Counted from the first letter of the stretch, positions 37,979-45,047 are shown. The stretch: 64,000 nt of DNA from an uncultured Actinomycetota bacterium (GCA_963837545.1 CAWINQ010000005.1:49525-113524); one strand, 5' to 3'. Notes: generated by a model from the sequence alone, not told the origin. Numbers and translations are program-made.

Positions 37979-38168
37979 ACGGCATCCCCTCGTCGGACCG
38001 TCTCCCGCGGTGGCGGCCAGATCCGAGCGTACGACGCCGGCCCGCCGCCGGGGTGCTGCGCACACATCCTCGGCCAGCGGGCTGTCAGCGGCTGCCAGCC
38101 GAATGTGCGGGCCCTGACAGGCGGACTTGTCACGGTGTGGTCATGACCAAGGACCCAGGAGGGACGAC

Positions 38169-39128
38169 ATGACGTACGCCATCAGGGCGGAAGGACTCGT
38201 GAAGCGCTTCGGCGAGACGGTGGCGCTGGCCGGGGTCGACCTCGCCGTCCCGCAGGGCGCCGTGATGGGCGTCCTCGGGCCGAACGGGGCGGGCAAGACC
38301 ACGGCGGTCCGCATCCTCGCCACCCTGCTCCAGCCCGATGCGGGCCACGCCGCGGTGAGCGGGCTCGACGTCGTCCGCGACGCCGAGAAGGTACGGCGGG
38401 AGATCGGCCTGACCGGGCAGTACGCCTCGGTCGACGAGGATCTCACCGGTCGGGAGAACCTCGTCCTGATCGGTCGGCTGCTCGACCTGACCCGGTCCGA
38501 CGCCCGGGCCCGGGGGCGGCAGCTGCTCGCCGACTTCGGGCTCACCGACGCCGCGGACCGCCCGGTGAAGACCTACTCCGGCGGCATGCGCCGGCGCCTG
38601 GATCTCGCCGCCAGCCTGGTCGGCCGGCCCTCGGTGATCTACCTCGACGAGCCGACGACAGGCCTCGACCCGGGCAAGCGGGACGACGTCTGGCGCATCG
38701 TCCGCGACCTCGCCGACGACGGCGTGACGGTGCTGCTCACCACCCAGTACCTCGACGAGGCGGACGCGCTCGCCGACGAGATCTCGGTGATCGACCACGG
38801 CAGCGTCATCGCCCAGGGCACGCCGCACGAGCTGAAGCAGATCGTCGGAGGGCAGACCCTCCAGGTCCGGCCGGTCGACGCGACCCGGCTGGACGAGGTG
38901 GCGGCGATCCTGCTCGCGGTCACCGACCACGAGGTGGAGACACCGAGCCGGGGGGTGCTCAGTGTCGCGGTCGACGGGGATGCCGCACTGACCACCGTCG
39001 TCCGGCACCTGCACGAGTCCGGAATCGCGGTCACCGAACTGGCGCTGGGACTGCCCAGCCTCGATGAGGTCTTCTTCGCCCTCACCGGACGCCGTACCAC
39101 CGAAGACGACAAGGAGAACGCAGCATGA
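38169..39128 (+). CDS. ABC transporter ATP-binding protein (DrrA / daunorubicin-resistance-like, ABC-2 subfamily).
   Basis: AGGAGG RBS. Walker A GPNGAGKTT, signature YSGGMRRRL, Walker B IYLDEPTTGLD. Confidence 0.8.
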   Translation: MTYAIRAEGLVKRFGETVALAGVDLAVPQGAVMGVLGPNGAGKTTAVRILATLLQPDAGHAAVSGLDVVRDAEKVRREIGLTGQYASVDEDLTGRENLVLIGRLLDLTRSDARARGRQLLADFGLTDAADRPVKTYSGGMRRRLDLAASLVGRPSVIYLDEPTTGLDPGKRDDVWRIVRDLADDGVTVLLTTQYLDEADALADEISVIDHGSVIAQGTPHELKQIVGGQTLQVRPVDATRLDEVAAILLAVTDHEVETPSRGVLSVAVDGDAALTTVVRHLHESGIAVTELALGLPSLDEVFFALTGRRTTEDDKENAA

Positions 39129-39952
39129 GTGTCCTGACCGCGCCGACGGTCACCGAGCGGCCGCCGACCACGCCGACCCAGACCCCCGCGCGCCCGATGG
39201 CTCTGGTGCGCCACAGCCTCAGCCTCGCCCAGCGCAGCATCATCAAGATCAAGCGAACGCCCGAGCAGCTGATGGACGTGACCCTGCAGCCCATCATCTT
39301 CGTGCTGCTCTTCGTCTACATCTTCGGCGGCGCCGTCGCCGGATCGACCCACGACTACCTGCAGTACGTCCTGCCGGCGATCATGGTGCAGACCGTCGTC
39401 TTCTCCTCGGTGAGCATCGGCGTGAACCTCAACACCGACGTCGACAAGGGCGTCTTCGACCGGTTCCGCAGCCTGCCCATCCCGCGATCGGCCCCCCTGG
39501 TCGGGGCAGTGCTCGGCGACATGGTCCGGTACGCCGTGTCGGTCGTCGTCCTGATGGGTTTCGGCTCACTGCTCGGCTTCCGCGTGGCGACTGACCCGCT
39601 GTCGGCGCTGGCCGCCTGCCTGCTGGTCATCTTCTTCGCGCTCTGCCTGTGCTGGATCTCGGTCTACCTGGGAATGGTCTTCCGCCAGCCCGGCGCGGTG
39701 CAGGGCGTGGGATTCCTGGTGATGTTCCCGCTCACCTTCGGCAGCAACATGTTCGTGCAGGCCTCCAGCATGCCGGGCTGGCTGCAGGAGTGGGTGAAGA
39801 TCAACCCGATCACGCACCTCGTCGACGCTGCACGGCACCTGATGCTCGGCGGAGCGGTGGCGGTCCCGGTGCTCGAGGCGCTGGCGTGGGGGATCGGCAT
39901 CCTCGCCGTCTTCGCGCCGCTCGCGGTGCGGGCGTACCGCCGGAAAGCCTGA
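39125..39952 (+). CDS. ABC-2 type transporter permease (DrrB-like).
   Basis: Six TM segments. ATGA overlap with the ATPase gene. Confidence 0.75.
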   Translation: MSVLTAPTVTERPPTTPTQTPARPMALVRHSLSLAQRSIIKIKRTPEQLMDVTLQPIIFVLLFVYIFGGAVAGSTHDYLQYVLPAIMVQTVVFSSVSIGVNLNTDVDKGVFDRFRSLPIPRSAPLVGAVLGDMVRYAVSVVVLMGFGSLLGFRVATDPLSALAACLLVIFFALCLCWISVYLGMVFRQPGAVQGVGFLVMFPLTFGSNMFVQASSMPGWLQEWVKINPITHLVDAARHLMLGGAVAVPVLEALAWGIGILAVFAPLAVRAYRRKA

Positions 39953-39966
39953 CCCGGCAGGCCGAC

Positions 39967-42900
39967 TCAGCAGTCGACGCGCTCGCCCACTCCGCCCGGC
40001 CGGAGGAGGGCGAGCGCGTCGCCGCGTTGCAGCCGGGTGCCCCGCTGGTACGCCTCGTCGTAGCCGTCGGCACCGAGGAGGGCGCGTAGCCGCTGCGACA
40101 CCCGCGCCACATCCGGGTTGCCGACATCCTCCATGCCGCGCAGGGCCGTGGCCGCCCCTAGCTGCTCGGCCGCACGGACGGCGTCGCCGTCGGCGAGCAG
40201 CGTCCACTCGGCCGTGGCGATCGCCGCGACCGCCATGACGGGCATGTCATGGGTGAGCGTCGCCATCTCGATCGCCACCTGCAATCGGTCTCCGGCCGAC
40301 ACGAGCTCGCCGTCGGCCAGGTCGAGGCAGGCGAGCCCGGCAAGCATGACTGCCTTGGCCTGCGGCGGCCCGCCACCGAAGCGCTCGAACCGGGTCAACG
40401 CCTCTTCGGTCAGCCGTCGGCCGGTCGCGGTGTCGCCACGCAGTCGCTCGATCTCGGCGAGACCGTGCAGGGCGAGGGCGCCGAAGATCGCGCTGCCGGA
40501 CTCCGTGGCTGCATCCACGACCTGCCGGAGATCGGTCTGCGCCCGGTCGGTCTCGCCGCGCCGGGCCCGCACCATCGCCATCCGGATCTGCACGAAGTGC
40601 ATGTCGTCGGGAGCGTGGAGGGCTTTCATCAACTGCAGTGACCGCTCGAACTCCGCCAGCGCCGTGTCGAGCTCACCGACGGTCATGTGCAGCGCGCCGA
40701 GGGCGGACAGCGTGTTGGCCAGACCCCATCGCTCCCCGAGCTCGTCGAAAGCCCGCAGCGCCTCGGCCAGGTCGCCGCGCATGCTCGCGGCATCGCCCTC
40801 GTTCTCGGCGATGAGTCCCCGCAGCATGCGGAGCGTGGCCCGGGTCCACCTGTCCGGGCTGGACAGCCCACGCTCGATCGCGGCGTAGGCGCGGGGGATG
40901 TCCTCGGCGAGCATCGCCATTCCCGGCTCGACCAGACTGAGCACCGGGTGCCGTCCCCGCGGGTCGAGACCGCCGAACGTCTCCAGCATCCCGAGCGCGG
41001 TCTCCCGGCCCCGGCGATACTCCCCGATGGACATCGCGCTCATCGCCTGCACCGTCGTGGCGATCGCCCGCGGCTCGGCCGGCGCCTCTCCGGGCACCGC
41101 GAGGGCCAGCTCCAGCCAGCTGGCCGCCTCGGCACTACTTCCGCGCAGCGTCCAGAACCAGCTGAGCGCCGCGCCGGTCCGGACCGCGGTCGCCGCGTCC
41201 TGCGCGTCGACGGCGTAGCGCAACGCCGCCAGCAGGTTCTCCCGCTCGACATTGAGCCGGGATAGCCACGGCAGCTGCTCCGCGGTACGCAGGTAGGGGT
41301 CGGCGGTCTCGGCCAGGCCGCAGAAGTAGGCGGCGTGGCTGGCCTGCACGGCGGCGATCGCCCCCTCGTCGGCGAGACGCTCGGCGCCGTACTCCCGGAT
41401 CGTCTCGAGCATGCGGTAGCGCGGCGGGTCTCCATCGGCGAGGAGCAGCAACGACTTGTCGACCAGCGCCGCCAGCAGGTCGGGGACCTGCCCGGCCGGA
41501 ACGGCGCCGGCGCCGACCGCCTCGGCGCTCTCGACGGTGGCGCCGGCCGGGAAGACCGCGAGCCGGCCGGCCAACGCCCGCTCCTGATCGCTCAGCAGCT
41601 CCCAGCTCCACTCGACGACCGCCCGCAGCGTGCGGTGCCGGGGCACCGCCGTGCGGCTCCCGCCGGTGAGCAGCCGGAAGCGGTCGTCGAGGCGGTCCGC
41701 GACCTGCTGGACCGACATCGACCGCAGCCGCGCCGCGGCAAGCTCGATCGCGAGCGGGAGCCCGTCGAGCCGACGGCAGATCTGGATTACCGCCTCGACG
41801 TTGCCCAAGTCCACCGCGAACCCAGGAGCGACGGCCGCGGCCCGGTCCGAGAACAGCCGCACCGCGGGACTCGCCGCGGCGTCGGTCACCGACCCGTCGG
41901 CAGGCGGCCGGCCGAGCGGCGGGACGGGGAGCAGGGTCTCCCCGAGGATGCCGAGCGGCTCCCGGCTCGTGGCAAGGATGCGCAGGTCGGGGCAGCGGGC
42001 GAGCAGCTGGTCGGCCAGCCCGGCTGCGGCGTCGATCAGGTGCTCGCAGTTGTCGAGGATGAGCAGTGCCTGTTTGTCGACCAGGGTGTCGAGCAGCGTG
42101 CCCATCGTGTCCAGCGGCGCGCTCTGCCGGCGGATGTCGAGCAGTGTCGCCTCGCGGGGACCGAACGCGCCGAGGACCGCCTGCGGCAGGTCGTCCGGGT
42201 CGGTGACCGACGCGAGCTCGGCCAGCCAGACGCCGTGGCGCACCGACTCCGTCACCCGCGCCCCGGTCTCCGCAGCGAGCCGGGTTTTGCCGCCGCCGCC
42301 AGGTCCGACCAGGGTGATCAGCCGGCTCTCCTCGAGCTGCTTCCCGATTCGCGCGAGCTCCTCGTCGCGTCCGACGAAGCTCGTCAGCTGCGAGCGCAGA
42401 TTGCTCCTCGGCGACGCGGGCGCGGCAGGTTCTGCGGGTCGTGCGGCCGGTTCGCCCCGCAGCACGGCCAGGTGCGCAGCCTGCAGCTGCGGCCCGGGGT
42501 CGACTCCGAGTTCGTCGGCGAGCAGGCGGCGGGTCTGCTCGTACGTCGTGAGCGCGTCGGCCTGCCGTCCGACGGCGTACAGCGCGGTGACGAGCGCGGC
42601 CCGCAGCCGCTCCCGCAGCGGGTATTCGGCGGCCAGCGTCTCGAGCTCACCGACGACGGCGGCGTGCCGACCGAGCGCGAGGTCGGCGTCGATCCGGTCC
42701 TCCCGCGCCGCCAGCCGGAGCTCCTCCAGCCGCGCGGCCGCGGGGGCGGCGAACGGCGCGTCACCCGCGTCGGTCAGCGGCAGACCACGCCACAGCCGCA
42801 GCGCGGCATGCAGGGTCTCGCTCGCGGCGGGCAGCTCGCCTGCGTCGAGCTGCTGCCGGCCTCGACGGGCCAGGCGTTCGAACCGGATCGCGTCGACGTC

Positions 42901-43179
42901 GTCGGCCGCGACGTCGAGCCGGTACCCGCGGCCCGTCGAGGCGATCGCGGACTTGTCGGGGAGGATCCGGCGCAGCCGGGAGACCAGCGACTGCAGGGCG
43001 TTCGCCTCGTCCGCCGGCGGGATCTCACCCCACAGCGCGTCGACCAGGGACCGGGTGCCGACGACGCCGCCCGCGTCCAGCGCCAGCCGGATCAGCAGCG
43101 CGCGCAGCCGGACGCCGCCGACCTGGACCGGCCGGCTGTCCTCGGTCAGCTCGAGCGGACCCAGAATGGCCACCTGCAC
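39967..43179 (-). CDS. AfsR/SARP-family transcriptional regulator with BTAD, NB-ARC ATPase and TPR domains.
   Basis: N-terminal OmpR-like DNA-binding domain plus BTAD. P-loop LVGPGGGGKTRLA. Long TPR C-terminus. 1070 aa. Confidence 0.8.
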   Translation of the reverse strand: MQVAILGPLELTEDSRPVQVGGVRLRALLIRLALDAGGVVGTRSLVDALWGEIPPADEANALQSLVSRLRRILPDKSAIASTGRGYRLDVAADDVDAIRFERLARRGRQQLDAGELPAASETLHAALRLWRGLPLTDAGDAPFAAPAAARLEELRLAAREDRIDADLALGRHAAVVGELETLAAEYPLRERLRAALVTALYAVGRQADALTTYEQTRRLLADELGVDPGPQLQAAHLAVLRGEPAARPAEPAAPASPRSNLRSQLTSFVGRDEELARIGKQLEESRLITLVGPGGGGKTRLAAETGARVTESVRHGVWLAELASVTDPDDLPQAVLGAFGPREATLLDIRRQSAPLDTMGTLLDTLVDKQALLILDNCEHLIDAAAGLADQLLARCPDLRILATSREPLGILGETLLPVPPLGRPPADGSVTDAAASPAVRLFSDRAAAVAPGFAVDLGNVEAVIQICRRLDGLPLAIELAAARLRSMSVQQVADRLDDRFRLLTGGSRTAVPRHRTLRAVVEWSWELLSDQERALAGRLAVFPAGATVESAEAVGAGAVPAGQVPDLLAALVDKSLLLLADGDPPRYRMLETIREYGAERLADEGAIAAVQASHAAYFCGLAETADPYLRTAEQLPWLSRLNVERENLLAALRYAVDAQDAATAVRTGAALSWFWTLRGSSAEAASWLELALAVPGEAPAEPRAIATTVQAMSAMSIGEYRRGRETALGMLETFGGLDPRGRHPVLSLVEPGMAMLAEDIPRAYAAIERGLSSPDRWTRATLRMLRGLIAENEGDAASMRGDLAEALRAFDELGERWGLANTLSALGALHMTVGELDTALAEFERSLQLMKALHAPDDMHFVQIRMAMVRARRGETDRAQTDLRQVVDAATESGSAIFGALALHGLAEIERLRGDTATGRRLTEEALTRFERFGGGPPQAKAVMLAGLACLDLADGELVSAGDRLQVAIEMATLTHDMPVMAVAAIATAEWTLLADGDAVRAAEQLGAATALRGMEDVGNPDVARVSQRLRALLGADGYDEAYQRGTRLQRGDALALLRPGGVGERVDC

Positions 43180-43203
43180 CGGACCACTCTCTCAGGTCCG
43201 TCC

Positions 43204-44151
43204 TTACCTGGTCGGGATCCGTCCGTCGAAATAGGTCCCGACGGCCCGCAGGGCGCGTCGCTGTTCCAGATCCACCACGGTCCGGTTGCGGCCGGCGTCC
43301 TCGACGTCGCGAACCGCGAGGTACATCGCCTCCACGGCGGCCTGGGTGGACGGGAACGGTCCGTGGTCGCGGACGACGCCGCGCAGCCGGGCATCCACGA
43401 CGTCGAGCAGCGGAGTGGTGAAGACGATCTGCCGGACCCCGATCGGGAGGGCGAGGAACGGCGCGAGCGCGGCCCAGTTCACCCGCCAGAGCCGGACGAG
43501 TGCGGGGTAGCGCTGGCCGAACCTCGCGGCGAAGTCGTCGAGCGCCGCGGCGGCGGACATCTCGTCCGGCGCGGTGTAGACGGGGAGGAGCGCCGCGCTG
43601 ACCGCCGCCCAACTCCGGCGGGGCCCGTACTGCCGCGACGCCCGGATCAGGCCGAGCACCCGGGTCTGGCGGATCGCCCGCGGCCAGGTCACCCCGATCG
43701 CGTCCGGCAGCCCGGGCACCCCCTCACCGCTGACACCGTCACCGGCGACACCGTCACCGCCGACCCAGTCGCAGCTGACCAGGCACACGTCGGACATCCC
43801 GCGAGCAGTCACCCGTTCGAACAGGTCGAGCCAGAACGTCGAGGACTCCCCCGGGTCAGGGGCGGGCCACAGGCCGAGCACCTGCTCGACGCCGGCACAG
43901 TCCACCCCGCCGACGACGTAGATCGGGCGGGTGCGAGCGCTCGGATGGCCGATCCGGACCGACACCTCGTTGACGAACACCACTGGCCAGACGGCGTCGA
44001 GCGGCCGGCCCTGCCAGGCCGTCAGGGCCTCGACGACGGTGTCGGGCAGCTGCCCGATCAGGTGGGCCGACCCGTTGGTGCCACGGCGGGCCGTCCCGGT
44101 CCGCCCGGCGACCCGGGCTTCATCCGGTGCCTGATGCACGGTGTCGGTCAT
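43204..44151 (-). mobile_element. IS256 (mutator) family transposase remnant: N-terminally truncated and probably catalytically dead.
   Basis: The WQGRPLDAVWPVVFVNEVSV...YVVGGVDCAGVEQVLGLW...FWLDLFERVTARG...LPDAIGVTWPRAIRQTRVLGLIRAS block is homologous to IS256/IS1081 transposases. The first DDE Asp is Asn (VFVNEV). It lacks the N-terminal 130 aa or so. An internal 15-bp tandem repeat encodes GDGVAGDGVSGEGV. Confidence 0.7.
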
Positions 44152-44611
44152 TCGTCATCCCCCGAGTTGTTCTGGACAGCGCAGCGCCCGGCGCCGGTCA
44201 CGCCGTCATCGACGGAACATGCCAGCACCGCGCCCACGAGCACGGAGGACAGCCCGCGCTGCTGGGCCCAGGATCCGGGCGGAAGAGGCGATCTGCTTGC
44301 TGCCATGGACTTCCCGACGCGGGTGACGGCTGTTCGGACCGAGACCAGGCCTCCCCTCGCGCGGAAAGCGGTGGAGTCGACGAACGCACGGCACGCCGAA
44401 GCCACCGTGCGTCCCTACCGAACCGGCCGAAGCCCCCCAGCGGCCCGCCCCTGCGGGTTGTCGCTCTACTCGACCCAAGCCAGTCACCGCGCAGCGTATC
44501 TCAGCTTTCACACGAAGTGACCCGCACCGCAAAAATCCCGGGAGCCGTGCTCCTCCCCATCCGGCCCGTCGCGCCCCGGCCGCCCCGGCGGCACCGCCGA
44601 CCAATCTCCGT

Positions 44612-44674
44612 GGATCACGCGATATCTATCTGCGTCGATCCCGCGATCTCTATTTGCGTGGATCCCGCGATACC
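44612..44674. repeat. 24-bp direct repeats x2.6 (GATCaCGCGATaTCTATcTGCGTc / GATCcCGCGATcTCTATtTGCGTg / GATCCCGCGATACC).
   Basis: Directly visible in a 900-bp non-coding, lower-GC gap. Confidence 0.8.
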
Positions 44675-44723
44675 CCTTGCCCGTGGGGGCACCCGAGGCT
44701 CACCATGCTCCTAGTGCAACGAC

Positions 44724-44761
44724 GCATCTCAGTGCGCATCTCAGTGTGGGCATCTCGGCAG
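44724..44761. repeat. 12-14-bp direct repeats x3 (GCATCTCAGTGC / GCATCTCAGTGTGG / GCATCTCGGCAG).
   Basis: Directly visible. Followed by the imperfect palindrome CCGATCCGGGTATCGG. Confidence 0.75.
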
Positions 44762-44846: not shown

Positions 44847-45047
44847 ATGGATACGTCGCTGGCTGACCGGCTGGAGATTCACAACGCCGGTTTCAGCGAA
44901 GACGCTGCCAGGGCCGGGCTGTGCGGAAGCCTGCACCTGCCGACCGGCCGGATCTGTCTGCACGGCGCCCGGCATGCCGGGCCGTGTGAATTCAGCACCC
45001 CGGCGAAGCTCACCGCACGGCTGCGGGCCGCGAAGTCTCGTCGCTGA
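44847..45047 (+). CDS. Possible small Cys-containing ORF (66 aa, MDTSLADRLEIHNAGFSEDAARAGLCGSLHLPTGRICLHGARHAGPCEF...).
   Basis: GGGGAGAGG RBS-like purine run 8-14 nt upstream. No family recognised. Confidence 0.2.
   Translation: MDTSLADRLEIHNAGFSEDAARAGLCGSLHLPTGRICLHGARHAGPCEFSTPAKLTARLRAAKSRR

Follow-up and report, generated by a model that had tools for sequence, protein, structure and literature searches.

Here, we describe a gene derived from an IS256-family transposase that has probably been exapted as a selected, non-transposing host gene in a narrow clade of uncultured Mycobacteriales. The gene (hereafter tnp-like) lies at positions 43204 to 44151, on the minus strand, of a 64,000-nucleotide stretch of DNA from an uncultured Actinomycetota bacterium (GCA_963837545.1, CAWINQ010000005.1:49525-113524), which was analyzed as a whole and which we call the window, and it stands directly upstream of a gene for a SARP-family regulator. 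It encodes a truncated IS256-type core that retains its fold with replaced active-site residues, it is kept as a single copy in conserved synteny, and it evolves under purifying selection. Tentatively, we also put forward that its product could be a non-catalytic subunit or modulator of the neighboring SARP STAND regulator, made from the same mRNA and acting on the regulator or on its promoters.

A truncated IS256-family transposase core

[quoted passage not shown] Residues 24-285 match positions 129-374 of the 379-position Pfam profile Transposase_mut (PF00872; E=4.4e-40), and the protein's sole solved homologue is the transposase of the IS256-family element ISCth4 (Protein Data Bank (PDB) entry 6xg8; E=1e-28); both matches bear out the homology to the IS256 catalytic core proposed in a first-pass annotation of this DNA. 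The score against the NCBIfam IS256 equivalog is 135.5 bits, below the cutoff of 150. In tblastn searches, five full-length relatives align to the gene only from about their residue 145-160 on, and with the profile match beginning at position 129, the missing N-terminal region that had been put at about 130 aa is confirmed at about 145 residues. Absent are the dimerization domain (DD), the subterminal DNA-binding domain (NDB) and most of the helix-turn-helix (HTH) domain, the last helix of which is retained. In ISCth4, these three domains occupy residues 1-165 and hold both dimer interfaces (about 1400 Å2 in the DD and about 700 Å2 in HTH helices α3-α4), together with the sequence-specific contacts to the terminal inverted repeats (TIRs) (PMC7780238).

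We found no N-terminal transposase remnant in any frame upstream of the gene (tblastn with the five full-length relatives), and no second IS256 copy within the 64-kb window or the fetched orthologous loci (tblastn). A de novo scan of positions 42900-44700 detected no inverted-repeat pair flanking the gene. The left and right inverted repeats of a full-length relative (L010) were also aligned with the flanks of the gene in the window and in two orthologous loci, L001 and L003, and their Smith-Waterman scores were no better than those of shuffled sequences, in a test whose sole reference ends come from a relative only about 50% identical at the protein level. Within that limit, the earlier statement that neither a full insertion sequence (IS) nor TIRs are visible holds. 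The truncation itself is no assembly error, a possibility that had been considered: six independent assemblies share it, which excludes an assembly artefact.

Orthologues and distribution

These six assemblies are the window and five orthologous loci (L001, L002, L003, L004 and L011), among them an uncultured Actinomycetota metagenome-assembled genome (MAG; L003) and an NCBI MAG labeled Mycobacteriales bacterium (L011). The window, L001, L003 and L011 share one gene order: a GH116 gene, a sulfatase gene, a gap of about 1 kb, the tnp-like gene, the SARP gene and a convergent ABC2/ABC_tran pair; L002 and L004 show the same order over partial coverage. At every tnp-like locus with enough flanking sequence the flanking genes are identical in kind, and no variable location was seen.

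The truncated orthologues recovered in a protein search were P0002, of 304 aa and 85-88% identical, and P0003, of 300 aa and 72-76% identical; below these, identity falls sharply to full-length transposases at no more than 50% (the closest at 48-50%). The 90% cluster of P0003 contains 15 members from many samples, giving, with the window protein and P0002, 17 distinct intact variants of 287-315 aa; 16 of them measure 300-315 aa, and the remaining one, P0246 at 287 aa, is aligned without an N-terminus. The same truncated architecture is present in all variants whose N-terminus is present. An exhaustive HMMER search of 1.8 billion cluster representatives places the clade in a single 50% cluster (569 bits), with the next match at 205 bits. 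A scan of contigs from genomes for orthologues returned L003 only, and a scan of JGI metagenomes with clade-specific peptides returned no further orthologues; a scan with a 20-mer from a conserved non-coding block upstream of the gene (described below) gave two chance matches, in unrelated contexts (L008 and L009).

More distant homologues of the SARP protein, at 55-58% identity (P0123 in locus L005; P0125 in L006 and L007), keep the convergent ABC2_membrane and ABC_tran genes and have upstream genes unrelated to those of the window, with no trace of the tnp-like gene, of a 66-aa ORF that accompanies it or of the conserved non-coding block. The cassette of regulator and exporter is therefore older, and the IS256-derived gene came in by a single acquisition upstream of the SARP gene, in the ancestor of a narrow Mycobacteriales clade. 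Comparison of orthologous loci thus finds the gene kept in the same truncated form in close relatives and absent in distant ones.

Purifying selection on the tnp-like gene

Ratios of nonsynonymous to synonymous substitution rates (dN/dS) were computed with NG86 and YN00 from codon alignments of four lineages. Values for the tnp-like gene are 0.18-0.32 (NG86) and 0.06-0.08 (YN00), those for the SARP gene 0.28-0.30 and 0.08-0.14, and those for the GH116, sulfatase and ABC genes 0.09-0.20 (NG86), so that constraint on the tnp-like gene is indistinguishable from that on its SARP neighbor and not far from that on other neighboring genes. Fisher tests for dN below dS gave p=3e-12 for the window against L001 and p=3e-11 for L003 against L002, two phylogenetically independent pairs, and p values from 1e-12 to 4e-19 for deep pairs.

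Other features of the alignment have the same character. Nucleotide differences are dominated by third codon positions (49/37/106 across the three positions in one example), GC content at the three positions (GC1/2/3) is 0.75/0.54/0.91 as in host genes, and every indel within the ORF is a multiple of three in length, alongside neighboring non-coding DNA that carries 1-nt indels. The nonsynonymous/synonymous ratio of differences (pN/pS) is 0.2-0.4 overall and lowest, at 0.16, in the region of the insertion domain. The branch leading to the window has 7 inferred nonsynonymous codon changes and 17 synonymous ones, compared with 6 and 19 on the L001 branch; the window copy, in which the first catalytic aspartate is replaced by asparagine (N61), is therefore not visibly relaxed.

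The same DNA contains spurious long antisense ORFs, for example one of 1061 aa at 41335-44520 on the plus strand, antisense to both the SARP and the tnp-like genes. In sequence of about 72% GC, ORF length is therefore no evidence of coding.

Active site and fold

Catalysis by ISCth4 depends on D175, D241 and E348, and a C/DxxH motif in the insertion domain, formed by C262 and H265, is important for it (PMC7780238); the D, C, H and E positions are 100% conserved across 92 full-length relatives that we aligned. The counterpart of D175 in the window is N61 (AAC, 43969-43971), matching the replacement of the first DDE aspartate (VFVNEV) that the first-pass annotation had read; this residue is D in P0002 and E in the other 15 variants. 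D241 and E348 correspond to D128 (43768-43770) and D250 (43402-43404), each of them D in all 17 variants, and the CxxH pair to R164 and G167 (43651-43662), R and G in all 17. With the N-terminal domains gone, N61 in the first catalytic position and the CxxH motif lost, the earlier call that the protein is probably inactive as a transposase is well supported.

A 15-bp in-frame tandem repeat (43724-43764, minus strand; 2.7 copies, 88% matches) lies beside the second catalytic aspartate, as had been described, and encodes (D/E)GVxG units directly after D128. There are four such units in the window, two in L001 and one in the clade of L002, L003 and L011.

Across the protein, 71 of 122 family-conserved positions (at least 85% in the 92 full-length relatives) are retained and 51 are changed. 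Every active-site neighbor that is 100% invariant in the family is among the changed positions, namely K66R, R68G, C164R, H167G, N247P, E250D, S251Y/V/G, N253D, K274E and W297Q, and most replacements at such positions are fixed within the clade, position 61 being variable (E/N/D). In ISCth4, basic residues K280, R284, K287 and R288 of helix α9 touch flanking DNA (PMC7780238); their counterparts are A182, A186, L189 (most orthologues have Q189) and P190, all of them in a helix, RRSWAAVSAAL, that does not vary across the clade.

An AlphaFold2 model built from a 95-sequence alignment (pLDDT 83.6, pTM 0.80) superposes on the ISCth4 transposase TnpA with a TMq of 0.74 and an rmsd of 2.5 Å. Disorder in the model is limited to residues 1-28 and to the repeat loop, residues 132-141 (pLDDT below 50 in the loop). 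A kept fold, a replaced and fixed active site, tolerance of a variable loop at D128 and a constrained N61 copy together fit a protein that lost its chemistry and then took on a new role.

The SARP gene and its convergent exporter

The downstream gene (39967-43179, minus strand, with a GTG start at 43179) encodes a SARP-family STAND regulator of 1070 aa with winged HTH (wHTH; Trans_reg_C), BTAD, NB-ARC/AAA and TPR domains, the canonical wHTH-BTAD-NB-ARC-TPR architecture of large SARP/AfsR-like STAND regulators. Its score against the AfsR equivalog is 218.9 bits, compared with a cutoff of 1430, and it is not an AfsR equivalog. A spacer of 24 nt (43180-43203, minus strand) with a ribosome-binding site (RBS)-like GAGAGAG separates the TAA stop of the tnp-like gene from this GTG. 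The junction from stop to start, CCTGAGAGAGTGGTCC-GTG-CAGGT, is invariant in five loci, so the co-orientation and 24-nt gap to a SARP-NB-ARC-TPR gene noted in the first pass are both real and conserved. We found no promoter-like or terminator-like site between the two genes. Spacing and conservation argue for co-transcription of the SARP gene with the tnp-like gene and a small ORF (sORF) that precedes it.

Convergent with the SARP gene is a DrrAB-like ABC exporter pair (38127-39952, plus strand), made up of ABC_tran (38127-39128) and ABC2_membrane (39125-39952) genes. The cassette of SARP gene and convergent exporter spans 38127-43179 in the window, 8001-12926 in L005 and 8001-13411 in L006, and it is kept down to 55% SARP identity amid otherwise unrelated neighborhoods. 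This conservation suggests that the exporter may be the regulator's primary target or partner. A PADLOC search for defense systems left the tnp-like protein without a match, and the SARP protein had just a marginal one, to TPR.

The upstream region

The apparent gap upstream of the tnp-like gene is a conserved region of regulatory sequence and small genes, not IS debris. Immediately upstream lies the sORF (44148-44306, minus strand), which carries a lipobox-like signal (…SVLVGAVLAC…) and whose TGA overlaps the tnp-like ATG (ATGA). In the window it encodes 52 aa, because 37 aa are deleted in frame, and its C-terminus differs; in orthologues it encodes about 87 aa with two further conserved cysteines. 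Its end lies 3-4 nt before the tnp-like ATG or, as in the window, overlaps it. A GGGGGA Shine-Dalgarno sequence before the ATG is conserved. Constraint on the sORF is weak (pN/pS 0.5-0.6, GC3 0.70-0.77).

Farther upstream is a non-coding block of about 180 nt (44360-44540; about 9500-9690 in L001, 9505-9690 in L003 and 990-1175 in L002, and 9487-9742 in L011) with 85-95% invariant columns in four lineages. It is more conserved than the flanking genes, which differ at 12-22% of nucleotides among these lineages, and it is probably a regulatory or leader region for two divergent units, one reading from the sORF through the tnp-like gene to the SARP gene and the other containing the 66-aa ORF (s66). 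A conserved sigma70-like promoter within the block (TTCACA-N18-AAAAAT, 44507-44536, plus strand) faces s66. We rejected a structured RNA here: the upstream gap has no Rfam match at E≤1, neither strand of the block folds with better energy than shuffled sequences (z 0.67 and 0.08), and variation is too low for covariation outside one hairpin. A coding role for the block was considered and rejected, as 1-nt indels break every frame. A terminator-like hairpin (44540-44557, minus strand), followed by GGGATTTTTG, sits at the block's upstream edge. Four base pairs form its stem, and two of these differ in both partners between lineages (GC to UG and AU to GC); 500 nt separate the hairpin from the end of the nearest minus-strand gene upstream.

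The divergent promoter region also contains a variable-number tandem repeat (VNTR) of 24 bp (44604-44672; consensus ATCTGCGTGGATCCCGCGATATCT; 2.9 copies), present in about seven copies in L001 and as a single degenerate copy in L002 and L003. These repeats were rejected as candidate SARP boxes because their copy number varies (1, 3 and about 7) and their period is not 11 or 22 bp. Between the VNTR and s66 lies a perfect 12-bp direct repeat, two copies of CGCATCTCAGTG (ACTGAGATGCG on the minus strand) at 44723-44746, which is partly conserved among orthologues. The s66 ORF itself (44847-45047, plus strand), which starts MDTSLADRLEIHNAGFSEDAARAGLCGSLHLPTGRICLHGARHAGPCEF and diverges from the tnp-like operon, is under strong constraint (pN/pS 0.07-0.28), is Cys/His-rich with a possible metal site, matches no Pfam family and is present only in the tnp-like-bearing clade.

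Discussion

Judged as an IS256 transposase, the tnp-like protein lacks the N-terminal domains and the DDE and CxxH residues of the family, its gene has no detectable TIRs and is single in the window, and it scores below the equivalog cutoff. Judged as a domesticated gene, it has conserved single-copy synteny, purifying selection and lost mobility features, and of the two readings offered in the first-pass annotation it is the domesticated transposase-derived gene, not the decaying remnant, that our data bear out: purifying selection equals that on the SARP gene, codons are host-like and 17 variants are intact. We propose that an IS256-family element inserted directly upstream of an ancestral SARP and ABC-exporter cassette in the ancestor of a narrow, uncultured Mycobacteriales clade. 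The element would then have lost its ends and its first ~145 codons, encoding the dimerization, subterminal DNA-binding and HTH domains, and the remaining catalytic-core gene would have been exapted and held by purifying selection. The resulting protein would be folded, unable to bind IS ends or to dimerize through the known interfaces and, at least in this genome, unable to catalyze transposition. It most likely shares one transcript with the SARP gene, since the 24-nt spacer is invariant and carries an RBS, and there is no terminator. In this setting it may act as a non-catalytic accessory of the SARP module, either as a protein that pairs with or modulates the STAND regulator or as a non-specific nucleic-acid-binding cofactor at the regulator's targets.

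Several observations weigh against parts of this proposal. Because the gene is confined to a narrow clade, constraint has been measured over modest divergence (71-88% amino-acid identity), and the β-sheet half of the protein is the least constrained (pN/pS 0.63). A frame free of stop codons was rejected as too weak a sign of selection: under random substitution in this GC-rich DNA, the probability of encountering none is 0.11-0.41. The acidic triad (E/D, D, D) persists in 16 of the 17 variants, and orthologues that carry it may retain residual metal binding or catalysis. Co-transcription and a functional link to the SARP protein are both drawn from adjacency. Finally, domesticated transposases that have become regulators usually retain their DNA-binding domain, which is the part that the tnp-like protein has lost.

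Other explanations make different sense of the same locus. The gene could be a neutral, slowly decaying IS256 pseudogene whose insertion merely gave the SARP gene an upstream region or promoter, its open frame an accident of GC-rich DNA. Truncation, N61 and missing IS ends are what such decay would leave behind, long spurious ORFs are common here, the observed number of random substitutions would leave a frame without stops with the probability just given, and IS256 elements can create promoters beside host genes (PMC7780238). A decaying sequence would not, however, be expected to show dN below dS in two independent pairs (p of about 1e-11), a third-position substitution bias with a GC3 of 0.91, indels confined to whole codons beside non-coding DNA with 1-nt indels, replacements at family-invariant sites that have themselves become fixed, or 17 intact variants; nor is there an evident overlapping functional gene on the other strand that could mimic codon-level constraint. 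These tests largely refute decay, and we regard it as very unlikely. We give still less credence to a leader-ORF model in which only translation matters, coupling ribosomes to a weak SARP start, and the protein is functionless. The invariant 24-nt spacer with only a weak RBS-like GAGAGAG before the GTG, and the ATGA overlap between the sORF and the tnp-like start, are both in keeping with such coupling. A pure leader requires an open frame and not conserved amino acids, though, and the amino acids are constrained here (pN/pS of 0.2-0.4 across the gene, 0.16 for the insertion domain), in a protein with a confidently predicted fold.

Two further alternatives grant the protein a function of another kind. 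It might be a trans-acting inhibitor of transposition, conferring IS immunity in the manner of Tn5 Inh and selected for genome stability, with its linkage to the SARP gene incidental. Known truncated-transposase inhibitors likewise combine a missing N-terminus with a retained, folded core, and the gene is under purifying selection without catalytic residues. Yet both dimer interfaces of ISCth4 (DD and HTH α3-α4) fall in the missing N-terminal part (PMC7780238), no IS256 copy is present in the window or the fetched orthologous loci, no full-length transposase is closer than 48-50% identity, and the invariant, tight SARP junction is left unexplained, which makes this reading improbable. The protein might instead still be a nuclease or recombinase working through its acidic triad and guided to its targets by a second protein, for instance the winged helix of the SARP regulator. 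Among the 17 variants, position 61 is acidic (E or D) in 16 and D128 and D250 never vary, and the RNase-H-like fold is predicted with high confidence to be retained. Against such activity, the window copy carries N61 with no relaxed selection on its branch, the CxxH motif is R...G in all variants, the residues flanking the third acidic position (N247, S251 and N253) have all been exchanged, D128 is directly followed by a disordered insertion of variable length (5-15 aa), and helix α9 no longer has its basic residues for DNA contact. We consider retained catalysis quite improbable, and favor exaptation as a host gene without transposition activity.

Among known systems, the tnp-like protein shares with ISCth4 TnpA (PDB 6xg8, 6xgw and 6xgx), IS256 and IS1081 an RNase-H-like domain interrupted by a four-helix insertion domain. 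Unlike IS256-family transposases, it has no DD, no NDB and little of the HTH domain, and its DDE and CxxH residues and the flanking N/S/N residues are replaced; unlike IS256 elements, its gene has no detectable TIRs, is single-copy in the window and occupies a fixed chromosomal position. Its closest conceptual parallels, by analogy, would be the plant FHY3/FAR1 and MUSTANG proteins and catalytically dead transposase-derived partner proteins, all of them eukaryotic. Like the tnp-like gene, FHY3/FAR1 and MUSTANG are immobile host genes derived from the Mutator/IS256 superfamily, each at a single locus, with purifying selection acting on them and a connection to the regulation of transcription. 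These eukaryotic proteins have kept the N-terminal DNA-binding domain and are themselves transcription factors, whereas the tnp-like protein comes from a bacterium, is without the DNA-binding part and is encoded beside a separate DNA-binding regulator. Tn5 Inh is an N-terminally truncated transposase made by an active element, with its dimerization region kept. Like Tn5 Inh, the tnp-like protein is N-terminally truncated and without end-binding ability; unlike it, it has no active element in the window or the fetched loci, and its known dimer interfaces are missing. The PiggyMac-like PgmL proteins of Paramecium are reported to be catalytically inactive transposase-derived partner proteins (PMC6143343). 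The tnp-like core resembles them in having lost catalytic residues and yet been retained, presumably in a structural or partner role, and differs from them in that PgmL proteins belong to the PiggyBac superfamily, are eukaryotic and are paired with an active domesticated transposase, of which there is none at this locus.

Truncated IS copies are usually dismissed as pseudogenes, and to our knowledge clear domestication of DDE transposases is scarce in bacteria compared with eukaryotes. Our literature searches found no described domestication of an IS256 transposase in bacteria and no SARP-transposase partnership, nor are we aware of any account in which a gene derived from a transposase is the conserved upstream operon partner of a SARP gene. 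The locus described here is a clean example: a single acquisition bracketed by 'empty' SARP-ABC cassettes, with all mobility functions lost, fixed active-site replacement, continuing purifying selection and tight linkage to the SARP gene. Its distribution is narrow and its evolutionary signal is clear, and the annotation label 'IS256 family transposase' is misleading for this clade. If the protein does modulate the SARP regulator, it would represent a new type of accessory factor for a regulator family at the heart of secondary metabolism in actinobacteria. Such a finding would mean, too, that the RNase-H/insertion-domain core of a transposase, and not only its DNA-binding domain, is open to exaptation, and would make this a bacterial case of Mutator/IS256-type domestication into a regulatory module, parallel to FHY3/FAR1 and MUSTANG with the opposite half of the protein kept.

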